Shown here piece by piece: positions 2 to 49,364 of a DNA stretch of 64,000 nt; the first letter of the stretch is position 1; each line of letters begins with the position of its first letter. The DNA comes from Escherichia coli 042. GTDB taxonomy: Bacteria; Pseudomonadota; Gammaproteobacteria; Enterobacterales; Enterobacteriaceae. The position numbers were made by a program, and so were the translations under genes. Location: assembly GCF_000027125.1 (NCBI RefSeq), contig NC_017626.1, one strand, 5' to 3'. The notes under the pieces are model-generated. The model saw nothing but the letters and a program-made list of their open reading frames with translations, had not been told where the DNA came from and did no database searches.

Positions 2-259
<258 letters not shown>

Positions 260-312
260 TAACATCCAGGCGGCGTCCGAACGCGCCGCCGCTCATCGTC
301 TAAGGAGTACTT

Positions 313-537
313 ATGAGCGCGCTATTTCTGGCTATTCCGTTAACCATTTTTGTGCTGTTTGTTTTACCGATCTGGTTATGGCTGCATTACAGCAATCGTT
401 CTGGTCGCAGTGAATTGTCGCAAAGTGAGCAGCAGCGATTAGCGCAACTGGCTGATGAAGCAAAACGGATGCGCGAACGTATTCAGGCGCTGGAATCTAT
501 TCTTGATGCAGAACATCCGAACTGGAGGGATCGCTAA
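313..537 (+). CDS. pspB: Phage shock protein B
   Basis: 74 aa, MSALFLAIPLTIFVLFVLPIWLWLHY..., single TM; position after pspA. Confidence 0.9.
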   Translation: MSALFLAIPLTIFVLFVLPIWLWLHYSNRSGRSELSQSEQQRLAQLADEAKRMRERIQALESILDAEHPNWRDR

Positions 538-896
538 TGGCGGGCATTAATCTCAATAAAAAATTATGGCGTATTCCACAGCAGGGCATGGTCCGTGGCG
601 TCTGCGCCGGGATTGCCAACTATTTTGATGTACCAGTAAAACTGGTGCGTATCCTGGTGGTGCTGTCGATTTTCTTCGGTCTGGCGCTGTTTACCCTGGT
701 TGCTTACATCATTTTGTCATTTGCGCTTGATCCAATGCCGGACAACATGGCCTTTGGTGAGCAGCTACCTTCCAGCAGTGAATTGCTGGATGAAGTCGAC
801 CGTGAACTGGCGGCAAGTGAAACGCGTTTACGCGAGATGGAACGTTATGTCACTTCCGATACTTTCACGTTACGTAGCCGTTTCCGTCAACTGTGA
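537..896 (+). CDS. pspC: Phage shock protein C
   Basis: 119 aa, start overlaps pspB stop (ATGG/TAATG coupling); recognised PspC sequence. Confidence 0.9.
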
Positions 897-904
897 GGGA
901 AGTT

Positions 905-1126
905 ATGAATACTCGCTGGCAACAGGCCGGGCAAAAGGTGAAGCCTGGTTTCAAATTAGCAGGCAAGCTGGTACTTCTTACCGCACTGCGCTATGGCCCG
1001 GCGGGTGTAGCTGGCTGGGCGATAAAATCAGTTGCTCGCCGACCACTGAAAATGTTGCTGGCCGTGGCGCTGGAACCGCTGTTAAGCCGGGCAGCCAATA
1101 AACTGGCGCAGCGTTATAAAAGGTGA
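905..1126 (+). CDS. pspD: Phage shock protein D
   Basis: ATG at 905 gives [16 protein letters not shown]..., 73 aa; ORF track shows longer frame from 893. Confidence 0.85.
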
Positions 1127-1200
1127 GGGGAGTTTCGCAAAAATTGTTAAAGCTAAGGCATATTATGGATGGCAATTTTCATCCATAGAAGGACGCTTAC

Positions 1201-1515
1201 ATGTTTAAAAAAGGCTTACTTGCTCTGACACTGGTGTTTTCACTGCCCGTTTTCGCCGCTGAACACTGGATCGATGTTCGTGTTCCAGAGCAGTATCAGC
1301 AAGAGCACGTTCAGGGAGCCATCAATATTCCCCTGAAGGAAGTGAAAGAGCGCATTGCCACCGCCGTTCCGGATAAAAACGACACCGTGAAAGTGTATTG
1401 CAATGCCGGACGCCAGTCAGGGCAGGCAAAAGAGATCCTTAGCGAGATGGGATATACCCACGTTGAGAACGCCGGCGGCCTGAAAGACATCGCAATGCCG
1501 AAGGTCAAAGGTTAA
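1201..1515 (+). CDS. pspE: Thiosulfate sulfurtransferase (periplasmic rhodanese) PspE
   Basis: 104 aa with signal peptide and rhodanese active-site Cys (VYCNAGRQS). Confidence 0.9.
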   Translation: MFKKGLLALTLVFSLPVFAAEHWIDVRVPEQYQQEHVQGAINIPLKEVKERIATAVPDKNDTVKVYCNAGRQSGQAKEILSEMGYTHVENAGGLKDIAMPKVKG

Positions 1516-1633
1516 CAAATTACTTATTGAGCGGTGTAAACAACGCCGCTTATTCATTTGATAAATCAAAATTAACCCACATTATTATCTCCAGTATCTA
1601 ATCCTTTCTACAGCTTTCTGGCACAGGACAGCA

Positions 1634-3031
1634 ATGAAGCGACTTAAAAATGAACTCAATGCGCTGGTGAATCGGGGTGTCGACAGACATCTGCGCCTCG
1701 CTGTAACCGGACTTAGCCGCAGCGGCAAAACAGCGTTTATCACCGCGATGGTTAATCAGTTGCTCAATATTCATGCCGGAGCACGTTTGCCGCTTTTAAG
1801 TGCGGTGCGTGAAGAGCGCCTGCTGGGCGTAAAACGCATTCCCCAGCGTGACTTTGGCATTCCGCGCTTCACCTATGATGAAGGGCTGGCGCAGTTATAT
1901 GGCGATCCTCCCGCCTGGCCAACGCCAACGCGCGGCGTCAGTGAAATCCGCCTGGCGCTACGTTTTAAATCGAACGATTCGCTGCTACGCCACTTCAAGG
2001 ACACCTCCACGCTGTATCTGGAGATTGTGGATTATCCCGGCGAATGGCTGCTCGATCTGCCGATGCTGGCGCAGGACTATTTAAGCTGGTCGCGCCAGAT
2101 GACGGGCTTACTTAATGGTCAGCGCGGCGAATGGTCGGCGAAATGGCGAATGATGTGCGAAGGGCTGGATCCGCTAGCGCCTGCCGACGAAAACCGGCTG
2201 GCAGACATTGCCGCCGCGTGGACCGATTATCTCCACCACTGTAAACAGCAGGGGCTGCACTTTATTCAGCCTGGGCGCTTTGTCTTGCCGGGAGATATGG
2301 CAGGTGCGCCCGCGCTGCAATTCTTCCCGTGGCCGGATGTCGATGCCTGGGGTGAGTCCAAACTGGCGCAGGCCGATAAGCATACCAATGCCGGAATGCT
2401 GCGCGAGCGGTTTAATTATTACTGCGAGAAAGTGGTGAAGGGGTTCTATAAGAATCATTTTCTGCGCTTTGACCGCCAGATTGTGCTGGTGGATTGCCTG
2501 CAGCCTCTCAACAGTGGGCCACAGGCATTTAATGATATGCGTCTGGCGCTGACGCAGCTGATGCAAAGTTTCCACTACGGGCAGCGAACCCTGTTCCGGC
2601 GTTTGTTTTCGCCGGTTATCGATAAGCTATTGTTTGCTGCCACTAAAGCAGACCATGTGACCATCGATCAGCACGCCAATATGGTTTCATTACTGCAACA
2701 ACTAATTCAGGATGCCTGGCAAAATGCGGCGTTCGAAGGGATCAGCATGGACTGCCTGGGGCTGGCGTCAGTTCAGGCGACCACCAGCGGCATTATTGAT
2801 GTTAACGGTGAGAAAATCCCGGCGCTGCGCGGTAATCGACTCAGTGATGGCGCACCGCTCACTGTTTATCCTGGCGAAGTTCCCGCACGTTTGCCTGGTC
2901 AGGCGTTCTGGGATAAGCAAGGCTTCCAGTTTGAGGCGTTTCGTCCGCAGGTGATGGATGTCGACAAACCGCTGCCGCATATTCGTCTTGATGCTGCGCT
3001 GGAATTTTTAATAGGAGATAAATTGCGATGA
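1634..3031 (+). CDS. ycjX: YcjX family P-loop NTPase
   Basis: 465 aa, Walker A GLSRSGKT; synteny after psp operon. Confidence 0.85.
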
Positions 3032-4089
3032 CCGAACCGTTAAAACCACGTATTGATTTCGACGGTCCACTGGAGGTTGATCAGAATTCAAAATTCAGGG
3101 CGCAACAGACCTTTGACGAAAATCAGGCGCAAAATTTTGCCCCGGCCACGCTCGACGAAGCGCAGGAAGAAGAGGGGCAAGTTGAAGCGGTGATGGACGC
3201 AGCGTTACGTCCGAAACGCAGCCTGTGGCGCAAAATGGTGATGGGCGGGTTGGCTCTGTTTGGCGCAAGCGTTGTCGGGCAGGGCGTGCAGTGGACAATG
3301 AACGCCTGGCAAACTCAGGATTGGGTAGCGCTGGGTGGATGTGCCGCTGGGGCATTGATTATCGGCGCTGGCGTAGGTTCTGTGGTAACAGAGTGGCGGC
3401 GCTTATGGCGCTTGCGACAGCGCGCCCATGAACGCGACGAAGCGCGCGATTTGTTGCACAGTCACGGCACGGGTAAAGGCCGCGCATTTTGCGAAAAACT
3501 GGCGCAGCAGGCGGGCATCGACCAGTCGCATCCGGCACTGCAACGCTGGTATGCCTCAATCCATGAAACGCAGAACGATCGTGAAGTGGTCAGCCTGTAT
3601 GCTCATCTGGTCCAGCCGGTTTTAGATGCCCAGGCGCGGCGCGAAATCAGCCGTTCGGCAGCGGAATCAACGTTAATGATCGCCGTTAGCCCGCTGGCGC
3701 TGGTGGATATGGCATTTATCGCCTGGCGCAATCTGCGTTTGATCAATCGCATCGCCACGCTGTATGGCATTGAACTGGGATATTACAGCCGTTTGCGCCT
3801 GTTTAAGCTGGTATTGCTGAATATCGCTTTCGCCGGAGCCAGCGAATTGGTGCGCGAAGTGGGGATGGACTGGATGTCGCAAGATCTCGCTGCGCGTTTG
3901 TCTACCCGGGCAGCTCAGGGGATTGGTGCAGGACTTCTGACGGCACGACTGGGGATTAAAGCTATGGAGCTTTGCCGCCCTCTGCCGTGGATTGACGATG
4001 ACAAACCTCGCCTCGGGGATTTCCGTCGTCGGCTTATCGGTCAGGTGAAAGAGACGCTGCAAAAAGGCAAAACGCCCAGCGAAAAATAA
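3028..4089 (+). CDS. ycjF: YcjF family inner membrane protein (DUF697-like)
   Basis: 353 aa, 4-nt overlap with ycjX stop, hydrophobic segments. Confidence 0.85.
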
Positions 4090-28707: not shown

Positions 28708-29643
28708 TTATTTCACTTCAACCACATTCAGTCGTAACTCATCCAACTGATTTTCATCTTCTTCAGGCTGCCAACCCGCCGGTTGTAGAGGGATCTCTTC
28801 GCGATCAAACGCCAGATCACCCCCGTTAACCACTTCAGAACCGTGGGTAATGCCTTTGAAATCGAACAGGTTGGTATCGCACAGATGCGACGGCACCACA
28901 TTCTGCATCGCGCTGAACATCGTCTCGATACGCCCCGGATAACGTTTATCCCAGTCACGCAACATGTCAGCAATCACCTGACGTTGCAGGTTAGGCTGTG
29001 AACCGCACAGGTTGCACGGAATAATCGGGAACGCTTTTGCATCGGCAAAGCGCTGAATATCTTTCTCGCGGCAGTAGGCCAGCGGGCGAATCACGATATG
29101 TTTGCCATCATCGCTCATCAGTTTCGGAGGCATACCTTTCATCTTGCCGCCGTAGAACATATTTAAGAACAACGTTTGCAGGATATCGTCACGATGGTGA
29201 CCCAGCGCGATCTTCGTCGCTCCCAGTTCCGTTGCGGTACGATAAAGGATACCGCGACGAAGACGAGAACACAGTGAGCAAGTGGTTTTGCCCTCCGGAA
29301 TCTTCTCTTTCACGATACCGTAAGTGTTCTCTTCCACAATCTTGTACTCAACGCCCAGCTTTTCAAGATACTCGGGCAGAACGTGTTCCGGGAAGCCCGG
29401 TTGTTTTTGATCGAGGTTGACAGCCACCAGCGAAAAATTGATTGGCGCGCTTTGCTGCAAATTGCGCAGAATTTCCAGCATGGTATAGCTGTCTTTACCC
29501 CCGGAGAGGCAAACCATGATGCGATCGCCTTCTTCAATCATATTGAAGTCAGCAATGGCTTCGCCCACGTTACGACGCAGACGTTTTTGTAATTTGTTCA
29601 GGTTGTATATCTCTTTCTTCGTATTCTTTTGATTTTCTTGCAT
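28708..29643 (-). CDS. ttcA: tRNA-cytidine(32) 2-sulfurtransferase TtcA
   Basis: 311 aa, PP-loop SGGKDS and CxxC motifs. Confidence 0.9.
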
Positions 29644-29694
29644 TATTTCAGTTCTCTGGTACTAAATGGGGCAAATTGGGGGCAAACTTTGCAA

Positions 29695-30930
29695 CTACGA
29701 TAACCGCGCATTCAACATAGCTACCTGTTCGTCGTTCATGTCATCAATCCACATACCGTAAATTTCATACACCATCTGCGCAGTTTCATGCCCCATCTGG
29801 CTGGCTATAAATGCCGGGTTCGCTCCTGCCGTCAACAGCCAGCAGGCAAAAGTATGTCGCGTATGGTACGGATTACGGCGGCGAATACCAGCACGTTTTA
29901 CTGCTGCATTCCATCTCGCACCCAAACTGCTTACCGAGTAATAAGGTTTCTGTTTTCCGTTACACATCCTGGGCATGAAAACAAAATGCAGTTTGTGCTT
30001 TTCGGTTCTGCCGTACTCCCGATGATAAAAAGTGATTTCGCTTTTGCGATGATGCCCGGTCAGTTTGTATTGCTCCTTCAGTGCTTCAAGAGCTGGCTGT
30101 AGTAGTGTTACCGTCCGGATCCCCGCATTTGTTTTTGGGGGACCGAACATATCAAGTATCGTCAGGTTTCTTCTGACATTCACAATTCCCTTCTCGAAAT
30201 CCACATCCTCCCACGCCAGAGCTGCCAGTTCCCCGTGACGAAGCCCGGAGTAAACGGCAAATTTCCACAAGTTCTGGCTCTGTCCTTTTTCACTTTCCAT
30301 TAATGCATTGAATTCTGTTTTAGATAACGGATCAGGCTTTATTCTGTTTCGCTGTAATTTTTTTACTCCTTCAAATGGTTTGGTTGATATAAATCCCGAC
30401 TGATACGCAAAACGTAACAACGAACAGAGCAGGGCGATATAGTTATCAACTGTGCGCACGGTTCTTCCTTTTTTGTTGGATCTTGGATTATCTAGGTAAA
30501 GTGTTTCTCCATGCAGCAGTTCATTCCGGTAGTTTAAGATATCGCTATAACGAATATGTGATATTGGGGTACTCTCACAAATTATTATCCTGAGTGTTTT
30601 TAATTGTGATTTCGTTTTCTTCATTGTGTTTGTTGTTAACTCTGTCTCTTTAATTTTTGTCCAGATATCACAAAGCTCCCCGAACGTTTTTATGACCCTC
30701 GTTGTCACCATTTTTGCCCCAGTGCTGGACTGGGGAAAACGTCTTAAATACTCAAATTCACCGGAGTTGATTTCATGAACTATCAACGCTCTTAAATTCC
30801 CGGCCTTTTTAATGTTACTGTTAGTAACCTCCCAGCCTTTCAATGTTTCCCGACATCGTTTTCCTCGAAACATGAACCAGATGCGAATGTATTTACCTCG
30901 AATCTCGACACCTGTTGGTAATTTAGACAT
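29695..30930 (-). CDS. intR: Rac-type prophage integrase (tyrosine recombinase)
   Basis: 411 aa; C-terminal R..HxxR..Y catalytic residues (HTRHTFACWL...Y); adjacent to ttcA 5' end. Confidence 0.85.
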   Translation of the reverse strand: MSKLPTGVEIRGKYIRIWFMFRGKRCRETLKGWEVTNSNIKKAGNLRALIVHEINSGEFEYLRRFPQSSTGAKMVTTRVIKTFGELCDIWTKIKETELTTNTMKKTKSQLKTLRIIICESTPISHIRYSDILNYRNELLHGETLYLDNPRSNKKGRTVRTVDNYIALLCSLLRFAYQSGFISTKPFEGVKKLQRNRIKPDPLSKTEFNALMESEKGQSQNLWKFAVYSGLRHGELAALAWEDVDFEKGIVNVRRNLTILDMFGPPKTNAGIRTVTLLQPALEALKEQYKLTGHHRKSEITFYHREYGRTEKHKLHFVFMPRMCNGKQKPYYSVSSLGARWNAAVKRAGIRRRNPYHTRHTFACWLLTAGANPAFIASQMGHETAQMVYEIYGMWIDDMNDEQVAMLNARLS

Positions 30931-42171: not shown

Positions 42172-42334
42172 ACGTTACTCGATTAAAGAGCATTAGTTCA
42201 GATGTGAATTGACATTTTCACGGCACAGGATTGAGCTAGCGTGGTTGTCTGCTTTGTGTCAAAAGCAGATATTACCAGATTTAGACATCTATTCCCGATA
42301 GCCCTGCTCTGATGCTACACTCTGTGCTATTTTC

Positions 42335-43021
42335 ATGACCCCAATAAAAATATTTATGACTATTGCTGATTTCAAACGGCCTAAATTGGAGCTCCCAAAC
42401 GGGGCAAACAAACTACTACTGCACTCTTGCTGTGCTCCATGTTCCGGTGAAGTGATGGAGGCGCTTCAGGCCTCGGGAATCGACTATACCATCTTTTTCT
42501 ACAACCCGAACATTCATCCTCAGAAAGAGTATTTAATTCGTAAGGATGAGAATATTCGCTTTGCTGAACAACACGGCGTGCCATTTATTGATGCTGATTA
42601 CGACACAGACAACTGGTTTGAACGTGCCAAAGGAATGGAATGGGAGCCCGAGAGGGGGATCCGTTGTACCATGTGTTTTGACATGCGTTTTGAGCGGACA
42701 GCGCTGTACGCTGCTGAAAATGGTTTCAGTGTGATCAGCAGTTCACTGGGCATTTCACGCTGGAAAAATATGCAGCAGGTTAACGACTGTGGGCGGCGAG
42801 CCGTCGCGCATTATCCGGGCATGGTGTACTGGGATTATAACTGGCGCAAGCAGGGCGGCTCGTCCCGCATGATTGAAATCAGCAAGCGCGAAAAATTCTA
42901 TCAGCAGGAATATTGTGGCTGTGTGTATTCTCTGCGCGATACCAATCTACACCGCAAATCTCAGGGACGCCCTCTTATCAAAATTGGTCAACTCCACTAC
43001 GGTAAAGAAGAGAAGGAGTGA
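42335..43021 (+). CDS. DUF208 / epoxyqueuosine reductase QueH-like protein (putative Fe-S enzyme)
   Basis: 228 aa with Cys motifs [14 protein letters not shown] and EYCGCVYS, as remembered for the QueH family. Confidence 0.55.
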
Positions 43022-43258
43022 TTTTATGGAGCACCTTTCTTATTGATTTCATATTGGCGAGGTAGCGGGAGTTAAGTAAAATTGCTGCGGGTGCTTGAGG
43101 CTATCTGCCTCAGGCATGAACACCAAAAGGCAGATAGAGAAAAGCCCCAGTTAACATTACGCGTCCTGCAAGACGCTTAACATTAATCTGAGGCTCAATC
43201 TATGCTGAACACATGTAGGTTAGCCTCTTACGTGCCGAAAGGCAAGGAGAAGCAGGCT

Positions 43259-43414
43259 ATGAAGCAGCAAAAGGCGATGTTAATCGCCCTGATCGTCATC
43301 TGTTTAACCGTCATAGTGACGGCACTGGTAACGAGGAAAGACCTCTGCGAGGTACGAATCCGAACCGGGCAGACGGAGGTCGCTGTCTTCACAGCTTACG
43401 AACCTGAGGAGTAA
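43259..43414 (+). CDS. hokD: Hok-family membrane toxin (type I toxin)
   Basis: 51 aa MKQQKAMLIALIVICLTVIVTALVTRKDLCEVRIRTGQTEVAVFTAYEPEE matches remembered HokD/RelF; in-frame upstream extension from 43202. Confidence 0.8.
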   Translation: MKQQKAMLIALIVICLTVIVTALVTRKDLCEVRIRTGQTEVAVFTAYEPEE

Positions 43415-43880: not shown

Positions 43881-44480
43881 ATGGCGCATATACAACTGGT
43901 CAAACAAACTTCTTCTGGTTTACTTCTCCCGGCGACGCCGGAGAGTTGCGATTTTCTGCATCAAATCAAAATAGGTGAGTGGATACACGCAGACTTTAAG
44001 CGTGTGCGTAACTACGCATTCCACAAGCGTTTTTTCAAACTCCTGCAACTGGGATTCGATTACTGGACTCCGGTCGGTGGGGCGATCACACCTCGCGAAC
44101 GAGAAATGGTGTTCGGCTTCGTTGATTACCTGTGTGAATCAGTAGGCAGGGAACATACGCCAGCTCTGAGTGATGCCGCGGAACAATATCTGAATACCGT
44201 TGCGACACGCAGAACCCGGGATATGGCATTGCTCAAATCATTTGACGCTTTCCGCGAGTGGGTAACCATTCAGGCCGGATTTTACACCGAGCATTTTTAT
44301 CCTGATGGTAGTCGTGGGCGTCGGGCGAAATCCATCGCGTTTGCGAATATGGACGAAACCGAGTTTCAGCAGGTTTATAAATCTGTACTGAATGTGCTGT
44401 GGAACTGGATTCTGTTCCGTAAATTTTCCTCTCCGGAACAAGTCGAAAATGTGGCCGCGCAGCTACTGGAGTTTGCGTAA
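43881..44480 (+). CDS. Hypothetical nin-region phage protein
   Basis: 199 aa, immediately upstream of YbcO-like gene with stop/start overlap. Confidence 0.5.
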   Translation: MAHIQLVKQTSSGLLLPATPESCDFLHQIKIGEWIHADFKRVRNYAFHKRFFKLLQLGFDYWTPVGGAITPREREMVFGFVDYLCESVGREHTPALSDAAEQYLNTVATRRTRDMALLKSFDAFREWVTIQAGFYTEHFYPDGSRGRRAKSIAFANMDETEFQQVYKSVLNVLWNWILFRKFSSPEQVENVAAQLLEFA

Positions 44481-44770
44481 TGGTGGATTTACGTAAAGCG
44501 GCGCGGGGCCAGATGTGCCAGGTCAGAATCCCTGGCTACTGCAATCACAATCCCGAAACTTCTGTGCTGGCGCATTACAGGTTGGCAGGGACGTGCGGAA
44601 CAGCGACAAAACCACACGATATGCAGGCAGCGATTGCCTGTAACTCATGCCACGATTTAATCGACGGGCGGGTAAAAACCAGCGATTACACCAAAGAAGA
44701 ATTACGCCTGATGCATGCAGAAGGTGTTTTTCGCACGCAAGAAATCTGGAGAAAGGAAGGTTATTTATGA
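44480..44770 (+). CDS. YbcO-like protein (DUF1364, Cys-rich putative nuclease)
   Basis: 96 aa MVDLRKAARGQMCQVRIPGYCNHNPETSVLAHYRLAGTCGT...IACNSCHDLIDGR, close to remembered DLP12 YbcO. Confidence 0.75.
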   Translation: MVDLRKAARGQMCQVRIPGYCNHNPETSVLAHYRLAGTCGTATKPHDMQAAIACNSCHDLIDGRVKTSDYTKEELRLMHAEGVFRTQEIWRKEGYL

Positions 44771-45665: not shown

Positions 45666-45741
<76 letters not shown>

Positions 45742-45744
45742 TAT

Positions 45745-45819
<75 letters not shown>

Positions 45820-47769: not shown

Positions 47770-47906
47770 AATCTTAACTACAATATGATTCATTTTGATG
47801 ATTGTTTCATAAGGAACAGTGAAGTAAGATCTAAGATGAGTTAAATTTTATACAGTATAATCATAATGTTGCAGCAAGGTGGTTATAATTGAAAGAATAT
47901 TTAGAT

Positions 47907-49364
47907 ATGAATACATCTCATGTAAGAGTTGTTACTCATATGTGTGGGTTCCTGGTTTGGCTCTATAGTCTTTCAATGTTGCCACCAATGGTTGTAGCAT
48001 TGTTTTATAAAGAAAAAAGCCTGTTCGTTTTCTTTATAACTTTCGTTATATTTTTTTGCATTGGTGGCGGAGCGTGGTATACAACTAAGAAATCTGGTAT
48101 TCAATTACGTACCCGTGATGGGTTTATTATAATTGTAATGTTTTGGATTTTGTTTTCTGTTATTAGTGCATTCCCTTTATGGATTGACTCAGAACTTAAT
48201 TTAACGTTTATTGATGCTCTATTTGAAGGGGTTTCTGGAATAACAACAACAGGAGCAACTGTAATTGATGATGTTAGTTCATTACCTCGGGCATATTTGT
48301 ACTATCGGTCACAGTTAAATTTTATAGGTGGCTTAGGAGTTATTGTTCTGGCGGTTGCTGTATTGCCATTATTGGGTATTGGTGGTGCAAAGCTTTATCA
48401 GTCAGAAATGCCAGGGCCATTTAAGGATGACAAACTTACTCCCCGCCTGGCCGATACGTCACGGACACTTTGGATAACTTATTCTTTATTAGGTATTGCT
48501 TGTATTGTCTGTTATAGACTTGCAGGAATGCCTTTGTTTGATGCTATTTGTCACGGGATATCCACAGTTTCGCTTGGTGGTTTCTCAACTCATAGCGAGA
48601 GTATCGGATATTTTAATAACTATTTGGTTGAGCTGGTGGCTGGTTCTTTTTCCCTGCTATCGGCTTTCAACTTCACCCTTTGGTATATTGTTATTAGCAG
48701 GAAAACGTTAAAACCTTTAATCAGAGATATTGAACTTCGTTTCTTTCTGTTAATAGCCTTAGGGGTGATCATTGTTACCTCTTTCCAGGTCTGGCATATA
48801 GGTATGTATGACTTGCCTGGAAGTTTTATTCATTCGTTTTTTCTTGCCAGCTCCATGCTCACTGATAATGGTTTAGCTACGCAGGATTACGCAAACTGGC
48901 CCACGCACACGATAGTGTTTTTGCTGTTGTCAAGTTTCTTTGGGGGATGTATAGGTTCAACTTGTGGTGGAATTAAGTCACTTCGATTTCTTATACTTTT
49001 CAAACAAAGCAAACACGAGATAAACCAGCTTTCTCATCCCAGAGCGTTGTTGAGTGTAAATGTAGGAGGGAAGATAGTTACAGATCGTGTAATGAGGTCT
49101 GTATGGAGTTTCTTTTTTCTTTATACTCTCTTCACGGTGTTTTTTATACTGGTGTTAAATGGTATGGGATATGATTTTCTTACATCATTTGCAACAGTGG
49201 CTGCATGTATTAATAATATGGGATTAGGTTTTGGGGCTACTGCATCGTCATTCGGAGTGCTTAATGACATTGCAAAATATTTAATGTGCATAGCTATGAT
49301 TCTTGGTCGCCTTGAAATTTATCCTGTTATTATATTGTTTTCAGGTTTTTTTTGGCGCTCCTAA
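47907..49364 (+). CDS. trkG: Potassium uptake protein TrkG (TrkH family), prophage moron
   Basis: 485 aa from MNTSHVRVVTHMCGFLVWLYSL...; visibly AT-rich relative to flanks. Confidence 0.9.
   Translation: MNTSHVRVVTHMCGFLVWLYSLSMLPPMVVALFYKEKSLFVFFITFVIFFCIGGGAWYTTKKSGIQLRTRDGFIIIVMFWILFSVISAFPLWIDSELNLTFIDALFEGVSGITTTGATVIDDVSSLPRAYLYYRSQLNFIGGLGVIVLAVAVLPLLGIGGAKLYQSEMPGPFKDDKLTPRLADTSRTLWITYSLLGIACIVCYRLAGMPLFDAICHGISTVSLGGFSTHSESIGYFNNYLVELVAGSFSLLSAFNFTLWYIVISRKTLKPLIRDIELRFFLLIALGVIIVTSFQVWHIGMYDLPGSFIHSFFLASSMLTDNGLATQDYANWPTHTIVFLLLSSFFGGCIGSTCGGIKSLRFLILFKQSKHEINQLSHPRALLSVNVGGKIVTDRVMRSVWSFFFLYTLFTVFFILVLNGMGYDFLTSFATVAACINNMGLGFGATASSFGVLNDIAKYLMCIAMILGRLEIYPVIILFSGFFWRS

Follow-up and report, generated by a model that had tools for sequence, protein, structure and literature searches.

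The last step of queuosine biosynthesis, in which epoxyqueuosine (oQ34) becomes queuosine (Q34) on tRNA, is assigned to two unrelated enzyme families. One is QueG, a cobalamin and [4Fe-4S] enzyme that needs B12 (PMC11841063), and the E. coli enzyme is accordingly cobamide-dependent (PMC11841063); the other is QueH, the recognised cobamide-independent alternative to QueG (PMC6461909, PMC5372724). The structure of QueH has been solved for T. maritima (7lc5; family DUF208, PF02677, IPR003828), where the gene is chromosomal. Phages are also described to carry queuosine or 7-deazaguanine genes, for example phage 9g, whose kind of system combines DpdA with FolE, QueD, QueE and QueC (PMC6884629). These DpdA systems modify phage DNA, for which they draw on the initial, preQ0 portion of the pathway and on a transglycosylase; no homologue of QueA, QueG or QueH was reported for the viruses covered by a 2019 survey of viral 7-deazaguanine genes (PMC6884629). 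Queuosine work in E. coli assumes that QueG is the sole oQ reductase and that Q formation is B12-dependent. As to QueH, the family is characterised by a [4Fe-4S] cluster with an iron next to it, and it typically substitutes for QueG where the latter is absent, a distribution by which the family was discovered but which does not strictly define it.

The locus described here departs from this picture in several respects. It was noticed by a sequence-only reading of a 64,000-nucleotide stretch of the E. coli 042 chromosome (NC_017626.1; hereafter the window), as a 228-codon ORF on the + strand at 42335-43021 with the cysteine pattern of QueH. In our reading, to which we give a probability of about three in four, this gene encodes a functional QueH, is a moron occupying the slot from ren to ninB in a lambdoid prophage, stems from a chromosome elsewhere in the Enterobacteriaceae, and completes Q independently of B12 in lysogens. 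Whereas the phage systems above modify DNA, only the last, tRNA-specific step of the pathway is represented here.

The proposed membership in the QueH/DUF208 family is borne out by profile, invariant residues and fold together. The HMM search that the sequence-only reading had suggested gave a full-model match to Pfam QueH PF02677 (E=2.3e-65, model positions 1-174 of 175), and the sequence of the solved T. maritima QueH, 7lc5, is matched at E=5e-22, while no family in NCBIfam was matched though RefSeq names the protein QueH, and the NCBIfam set may contain no QueH model. From a library of 1.84 billion proteins we gathered 4,754 homologues at E≤0.001, including 318 at E≤1e-30, and aligned diverse full-length ones. 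The prophage protein keeps all 15 columns that are invariant in an alignment of 43 diverse sequences (C25, C26, C29, N52, R62, E99, R103, C104, C107, R111, K137, Q184, C187, G188 and C189), among them all seven cysteines and the candidate catalytic and metal-ligand residues, and a set of 63 sequences agrees. The third cysteine of the CCAPC motif corresponds to Asp13 in T. maritima, and this might be taken as the mark of an inactive or divergent enzyme; we rejected that idea, as Cys is the family norm at this position (60 of the 63 sequences). Moreover, an AlphaFold model built from the homologue alignment has a pLDDT of 95.8, and the best five matches of this model against the PDB by Foldseek are all T. 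maritima QueH (TM 0.92, rmsd 1.2-1.3 Å), with related TtuA-type Fe-S tRNA enzymes ranked next. Judged by sequence and modelled fold, the prophage ORF is a true QueH. It shares with the T. maritima enzyme the fold, the CC.../CxxC/CGC motifs and the invariant E, R and K; on the other side the identity is about 30%, and the prophage protein is longer by about 18 residues at the N terminus and 25 at the C terminus, extensions that are common to other enterobacterial QueH. In fact the chromosomal QueH of Enterobacter, Citrobacter koseri, Klebsiella oxytoca, K. aerogenes, Cronobacter, Erwinia and Providencia are of equal length and 80-90% identical to it. Neither the family nor the name is new, since RefSeq already calls the protein "epoxyqueuosine reductase QueH"; what differs from the reference enzymes is that the E. 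coli copy is prophage-encoded.

While the ORF is real and its motifs (YCGCV and the others) are as first claimed, the start at 42335 has to be given up. The alleles indicate that the true start of queH is probably the second ATG, at 42356, which leaves a protein of 221 aa, and it is to this ATG that the RefSeq start of the identical APEC O1 protein (WP_021554705.1) corresponds. The first ATG was rejected on two grounds: in the ST70 allele ATT stands in its place and a stop codon lies two codons ahead of the second ATG, and the seven extra N-terminal residues diverge freely among alleles (MTPIKIF versus MNLINTF), whereas changes in codons 8-40 are nearly all synonymous. A third candidate, M41, is implied by PHROG 3217 ("unknown function"), which aligns to residues 41-228 only, and it was rejected as well because codons 8-40, with 6-8 synonymous changes versus 1 nonsynonymous between alleles, are constrained and contain three invariant cysteines. 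No Shine-Dalgarno sequence is evident ahead of the ATG at 42335 or of that at 42356. The features are collected in Table 1.

Table 1. Features of the queH locus, in window coordinates (residue numbers of motifs refer to the 221-aa protein)
Feature	Coordinates	Strand	Basis
queH coding sequence (probable start), 221 aa and stop	42356..43021	+	PF02677, RefSeq start, invariant residues, AlphaFold model, dN/dS
In-frame upstream ATG and six codons, probably untranslated leader	42335..42355	+	ATT and stop in ST70, diverged residues
TGCTACACT, putative extended −10 promoter element, 43 nt 5' of the start codon	42313..42321	+	Conserved block
CCAPC motif: Cys25, Cys26, Cys29	42428..42442	+	Invariant in 43/43 diverse QueH
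CxxC motif: Cys104, Cys107, after invariant E99 and R103	42665..42676	+	Invariant columns
CGC motif: Cys187, Gly188, Cys189	42914..42922	+	Invariant columns

The element that carries the gene is a Rac-like prophage integrated beside ttcA, with its integrase at 29695-30930. On the 5' side of queH lie YdaU-like and DnaC-like replication genes, a DUF1627 gene and a Ren-like gene (DUF977), and on the 3' side follow hok/sok, a NinB-like gene, an HNH gene (DUF1364), a Q-like antiterminator, genes for tRNA-Thr(UGU) and tRNA-Gly(UCC), and lysis genes; with queH between the Ren-like and NinB-like genes, its earlier placement in the nin region is a fair label. The adjoining hok/sok type I toxin-antitoxin locus occupies 43089-43414, with an Rfam sok match of 119.6 bits at 43089-43264 and a Hok/Mok-like ORF (PHROG 251) at 43202-43414. 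The survey of other lambdoid prophages called for by the sequence-only reading found that the slot, in the order Ren-like, queH, hok/sok, ninB-like, is fixed in prophages of Rac and Qin type. The gene sits there in the prophages of APEC O1, ST70, ST131, O157:H7 Z1812 and strain 95-3322, and also in the isolated phage HannyBb. Among 92 IMG/VR loci examined, a Ren-like gene is found upstream in 87, mostly at 187 nt, and hok about 240 nt downstream in 74, while the more distal nin and Q modules vary.

Several other features of the element are recorded as they stand. Just 3' of queH there is a hot spot of cargo, which holds a Doc-family toxin in APEC O1 (L001, 21290-21973), a cytosine methyltransferase and an NgoMIV-type restriction enzyme in O157:H7 Z1812 (L005, 7872-9882), and a DUF1971 gene in ST70 (L003, 8290-8628). 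An ORF of about 490 aa at 47889-49364, after the lysis genes, matches in position trkG, a potassium transporter gene, in the homologous APEC O1 prophage, and is another non-phage cargo gene of the element. The DUF1364 protein (44480-44770) matches the PHROG HNH endonuclease family at E=3e-42, and its weak PADLOC matches to HNH effector models (E ~1e-3) probably reflect only a shared HNH motif. The integrase adjoins ttcA (28708-30930), whose product, tRNA 2-thiocytidine synthetase, is itself a tRNA-modification enzyme; this is probably the usual attachment site of Rac with no functional link to queH.

At the level of the species, 994 of 5,426 complete E. coli genomes (~18%) have queH, whereas matches to parts of the 24 kb around it are present in 5,425. 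Such presence and absence among related phages, between conserved phage modules, is that of cargo. The host gene queG, in contrast to this accessory distribution, is core: it is present in all but one of the same genomes (5,425/5,426) and is intact in APEC O1, which carries the identical queH allele. Hence the family's usual QueG-replacing distribution does not apply in E. coli, where queH is an addition to the cobalamin-dependent QueG and not a replacement, just as had been expected from the sequence. All 55 sampled E. coli rows are annotated as epoxyqueuosine reductase QueH, and none of the 55 as a pseudogene, one row covering only 65% of the query. IMG/VR has 163 near-identical copies, and about 22 further, more distant QueH are found in 2.9 million viral contigs. 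Among GenBank phage records HannyBb is the only one with a DNA-level match to queH; the others matched at the protein level are either short "Bacteriophage sp." contigs that lack annotation or records of excessive size that may be bacterial.

The prophage queH is under strong purifying selection. Comparisons of the prophage and phage alleles give dN/dS of 0.02-0.09, with dS reaching 0.44. For alleles sharing the phage upstream region, the window differs from HannyBb by 24 synonymous and 4 nonsynonymous changes and from ST131 by 13 synonymous and 1 nonsynonymous; as the ratio is low even where the phage-specific upstream sequence is shared, the constraint operates inside the phage lineage. The divergence of alleles, notably that of ST70, may however predate separate captures, in which case part of the constraint would have been chromosomal. 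This evidence bears on the possibility that queH rides along as a passenger, unselected for any function in E. coli, and is kept by linkage to the hok/sok addiction module and the prophage backbone. Such a history would fit the closeness of hok/sok in 74 of the 92 loci, the fact that queG already covers the reaction, and the varied cargo that the slot carries elsewhere (the Doc toxin, the NgoMIV-type restriction-modification genes and the DUF1971 gene). We nevertheless consider it quite improbable, as it is hard to reconcile with the low dN/dS, that of alleles with the phage-specific upstream region included, with the lack of pseudogene annotation in the sampled rows, and with every invariant residue being intact.

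With respect to its origin, the closest relatives of the prophage protein, about 90% identical, are encoded chromosomally in non-phage neighbourhoods on Enterobacter- and Citrobacter-like contigs, and their 90%-identity clusters also include proteins named from Klebsiella, E. albertii, Shigella and E. coli. Relatives of 80-86% identity are stand-alone chromosomal genes in Providencia, Erwinia, Photorhabdus, Ewingella, Pantoea and Gibbsiella. The simplest history would be that a chromosomal enterobacterial queH was captured by a lambdoid phage. The E. coli copy resembles these chromosomal genes in being a stand-alone single gene, and differs from them in that they are located amid housekeeping genes and it is located between the phage ren-like and hok/ninB-like genes. 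The chromosomal neighbourhood itself is different in each enterobacterial genus examined, namely purL-glrK in Erwinia, tmcA-purC in Providencia, beside benE in Photorhabdus, and LysR-acetyltransferase-csbD on the Enterobacter-like contig, which hints that queH moves often even outside phages.

The sequence upstream of the gene bears on this proposed capture. Here the upstream regions were compared by anchoring them on the start codon, as a MAFFT alignment across genera was uninformative. All five prophage and phage alleles have in common an unchanged 13-nt block, TCTGATGCTACAC, and precisely there the upstream sequence of ST70, which is otherwise unrelated, begins to be homologous to the rest. 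The block includes the extended −10-like element of Table 1 (TGCTAnAnT), whose final T is A in ST70. The same motif is found upstream of chromosomal queH, as TGCTACACT in Erwinia, TGCTACAAT on the Enterobacter-like contig and TGCTAAAAT on the Citrobacter-like contig, and its distance upstream of queH is 36-43 nt in prophage and chromosomal copies alike; in Providencia, Photorhabdus and Pantoea a −10-like hexamer of the ordinary kind is found at −37 or −38. A motif shared with chromosomal genes at matching distance suggests that queH was captured together with its native promoter, and that it may be expressed in lysogens.

Against this stands, first, the lack of a visible Shine-Dalgarno sequence noted above. 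In addition, a scan with a stricter consensus gave no + strand promoter in 42172-42355 and did not list the TGCTAnAnT motif, and no terminator was found between the end of queH (43021) and the hok/sok locus, so that transcription could come solely from the early-right operon of the phage. The same enzyme would then serve the phage, being transcribed only in that operon after induction and tuning the host tRNA pool for lytic growth. Besides the result of the scan, it speaks for this alternative that queH is co-oriented with and placed between replication and nin genes with no predicted terminator on either side, and that the viable phage HannyBb has retained it. Yet we regard it as unlikely, for three points argue in the other direction. 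The −10-like motif common to the chromosomal homologues argues for independent transcription; the strong constraint on queH holds in prophages of Rac and Qin type, many of which are defective; and the prophage genes show no distinctive usage of Asn, Asp, His and Tyr codons, of which the U-ending ones make up 68% in the host versus 63% in the prophage, no difference being seen, a result that weighs on our main reading as well.

The sequence-only reading had further connected queH with the two phage tRNAs and with a 7-deazaguanine pathway. The tRNAs do exist, tRNA-Thr(UGU) at 45666-45741 and tRNA-Gly(UCC) at 45745-45819, just 3' of the Q-like antiterminator, and the ST131 prophage with the same queH has tRNA-Ile and tRNA-Arg at the equivalent place. 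But queuosine is confined to tRNAs with GUN anticodons, those for Asn, Asp, His and Tyr (PMC9508795), so none of these phage tRNAs is a substrate of QueH, and we rejected the functional link. The idea of a 7-deazaguanine pathway likewise did not hold. The annotations of the homologous APEC O1 prophage and of the complete HannyBb genome list neither a DpdA/TGT-like transglycosylase nor folE, queC, queD or queE, and with no genes for a transglycosylase or preQ0 synthesis there is no 7-deazaguanine DNA pathway; a PADLOC scan also gave no hit in support of such DNA modification. The same results weigh on the view that QueH has been re-purposed for a substrate other than oQ34, e.g. in 7-deazaguanine modification of phage DNA or in anti-defence. 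It is true that phages use 7-deazaguanine chemistry on their own DNA (PMC6884629, PMC10516641) and that queH sits amid defence and addiction cargo. Apart from the missing partner genes, however, the protein has about 90% identity to the chromosomal QueH of the Enterobacter- and Citrobacter-like contigs and the same invariant residues, and thus gives no sign of a new function evolving. We hold this to be very improbable, the least credible of the readings considered.

We return to the reading of a functional, captured QueH. Its most likely role, as deduced from the sequence comparisons, is the B12-independent conversion of oQ to Q in lysogens. The enzyme would be an iron-sulfur, cobalamin-independent tRNA epoxyqueuosine(34) reductase, its gene taken from the chromosome of another Enterobacteriaceae member, apparently with its own short promoter, and it would turn oQ into Q at position 34 of tRNA-Asn, -Asp, -His and -Tyr. 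The host QueG catalyses this same step and is encoded in the same strains, but it requires vitamin B12. E. coli cannot make B12 from scratch, and B12-starved cells reportedly accumulate oQ (Frey et al. 1988, cited by title in PMC10639084). Given a B12-dependent QueG and no de novo B12, a lysogen with queH should complete the Q modification whatever the B12 supply. That independence from B12 is the benefit under selection is speculative, because we know of no physiological difference between oQ and Q. It can be proposed tentatively, and with slightly more doubt than belief on our part, that the prophage queH acts in lysogenic conversion, changing the state of tRNA modification in the cell: expressed from the captured promoter, it would make the final queuosine step independent of B12 in about one in five E. 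coli strains, those of the ST131, O157:H7 and APEC lineages included.

The biology involved is modest: the enzyme family is well understood, and a phage has brought it into a host with near relatives that have a chromosomal copy. Within the library that we could search, no paper treating the prophage QueH as a phage gene was found. The implication for practice is that some 18% of complete E. coli genomes, major pathogenic lineages included, have on a prophage a second, predicted B12-independent enzyme, and this could confound experiments on queG or B12 outside K-12. If the reading as lysogenic conversion is true, the prophage enzyme would stand as the first of the queuosine-specific pathway with a demonstrated action in phage-borne form, and it would offer natural near-isogenic material on what the change from oQ to Q contributes to cell physiology. 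In this sense the prophage queH presents a proposed lysogenic conversion of tRNA modification that is easy to test.

Finally, the treatment of this gene in phage annotation deserves some attention. The profile phrog_3217 has 188 positions, is aligned to 42455-43018 of the window, and begins at residue 41 (MEALQ...) without the CCAPC motif; the gene calls behind it were probably truncated at the N terminus. With a label of unknown function and a profile lacking CCAPC, phage annotation pipelines are likely to miss queH. Moreover a Shine-Dalgarno-like sequence, GGTGAAG, is located just 5' of the internal ATG of M41, and this may mislead gene callers.
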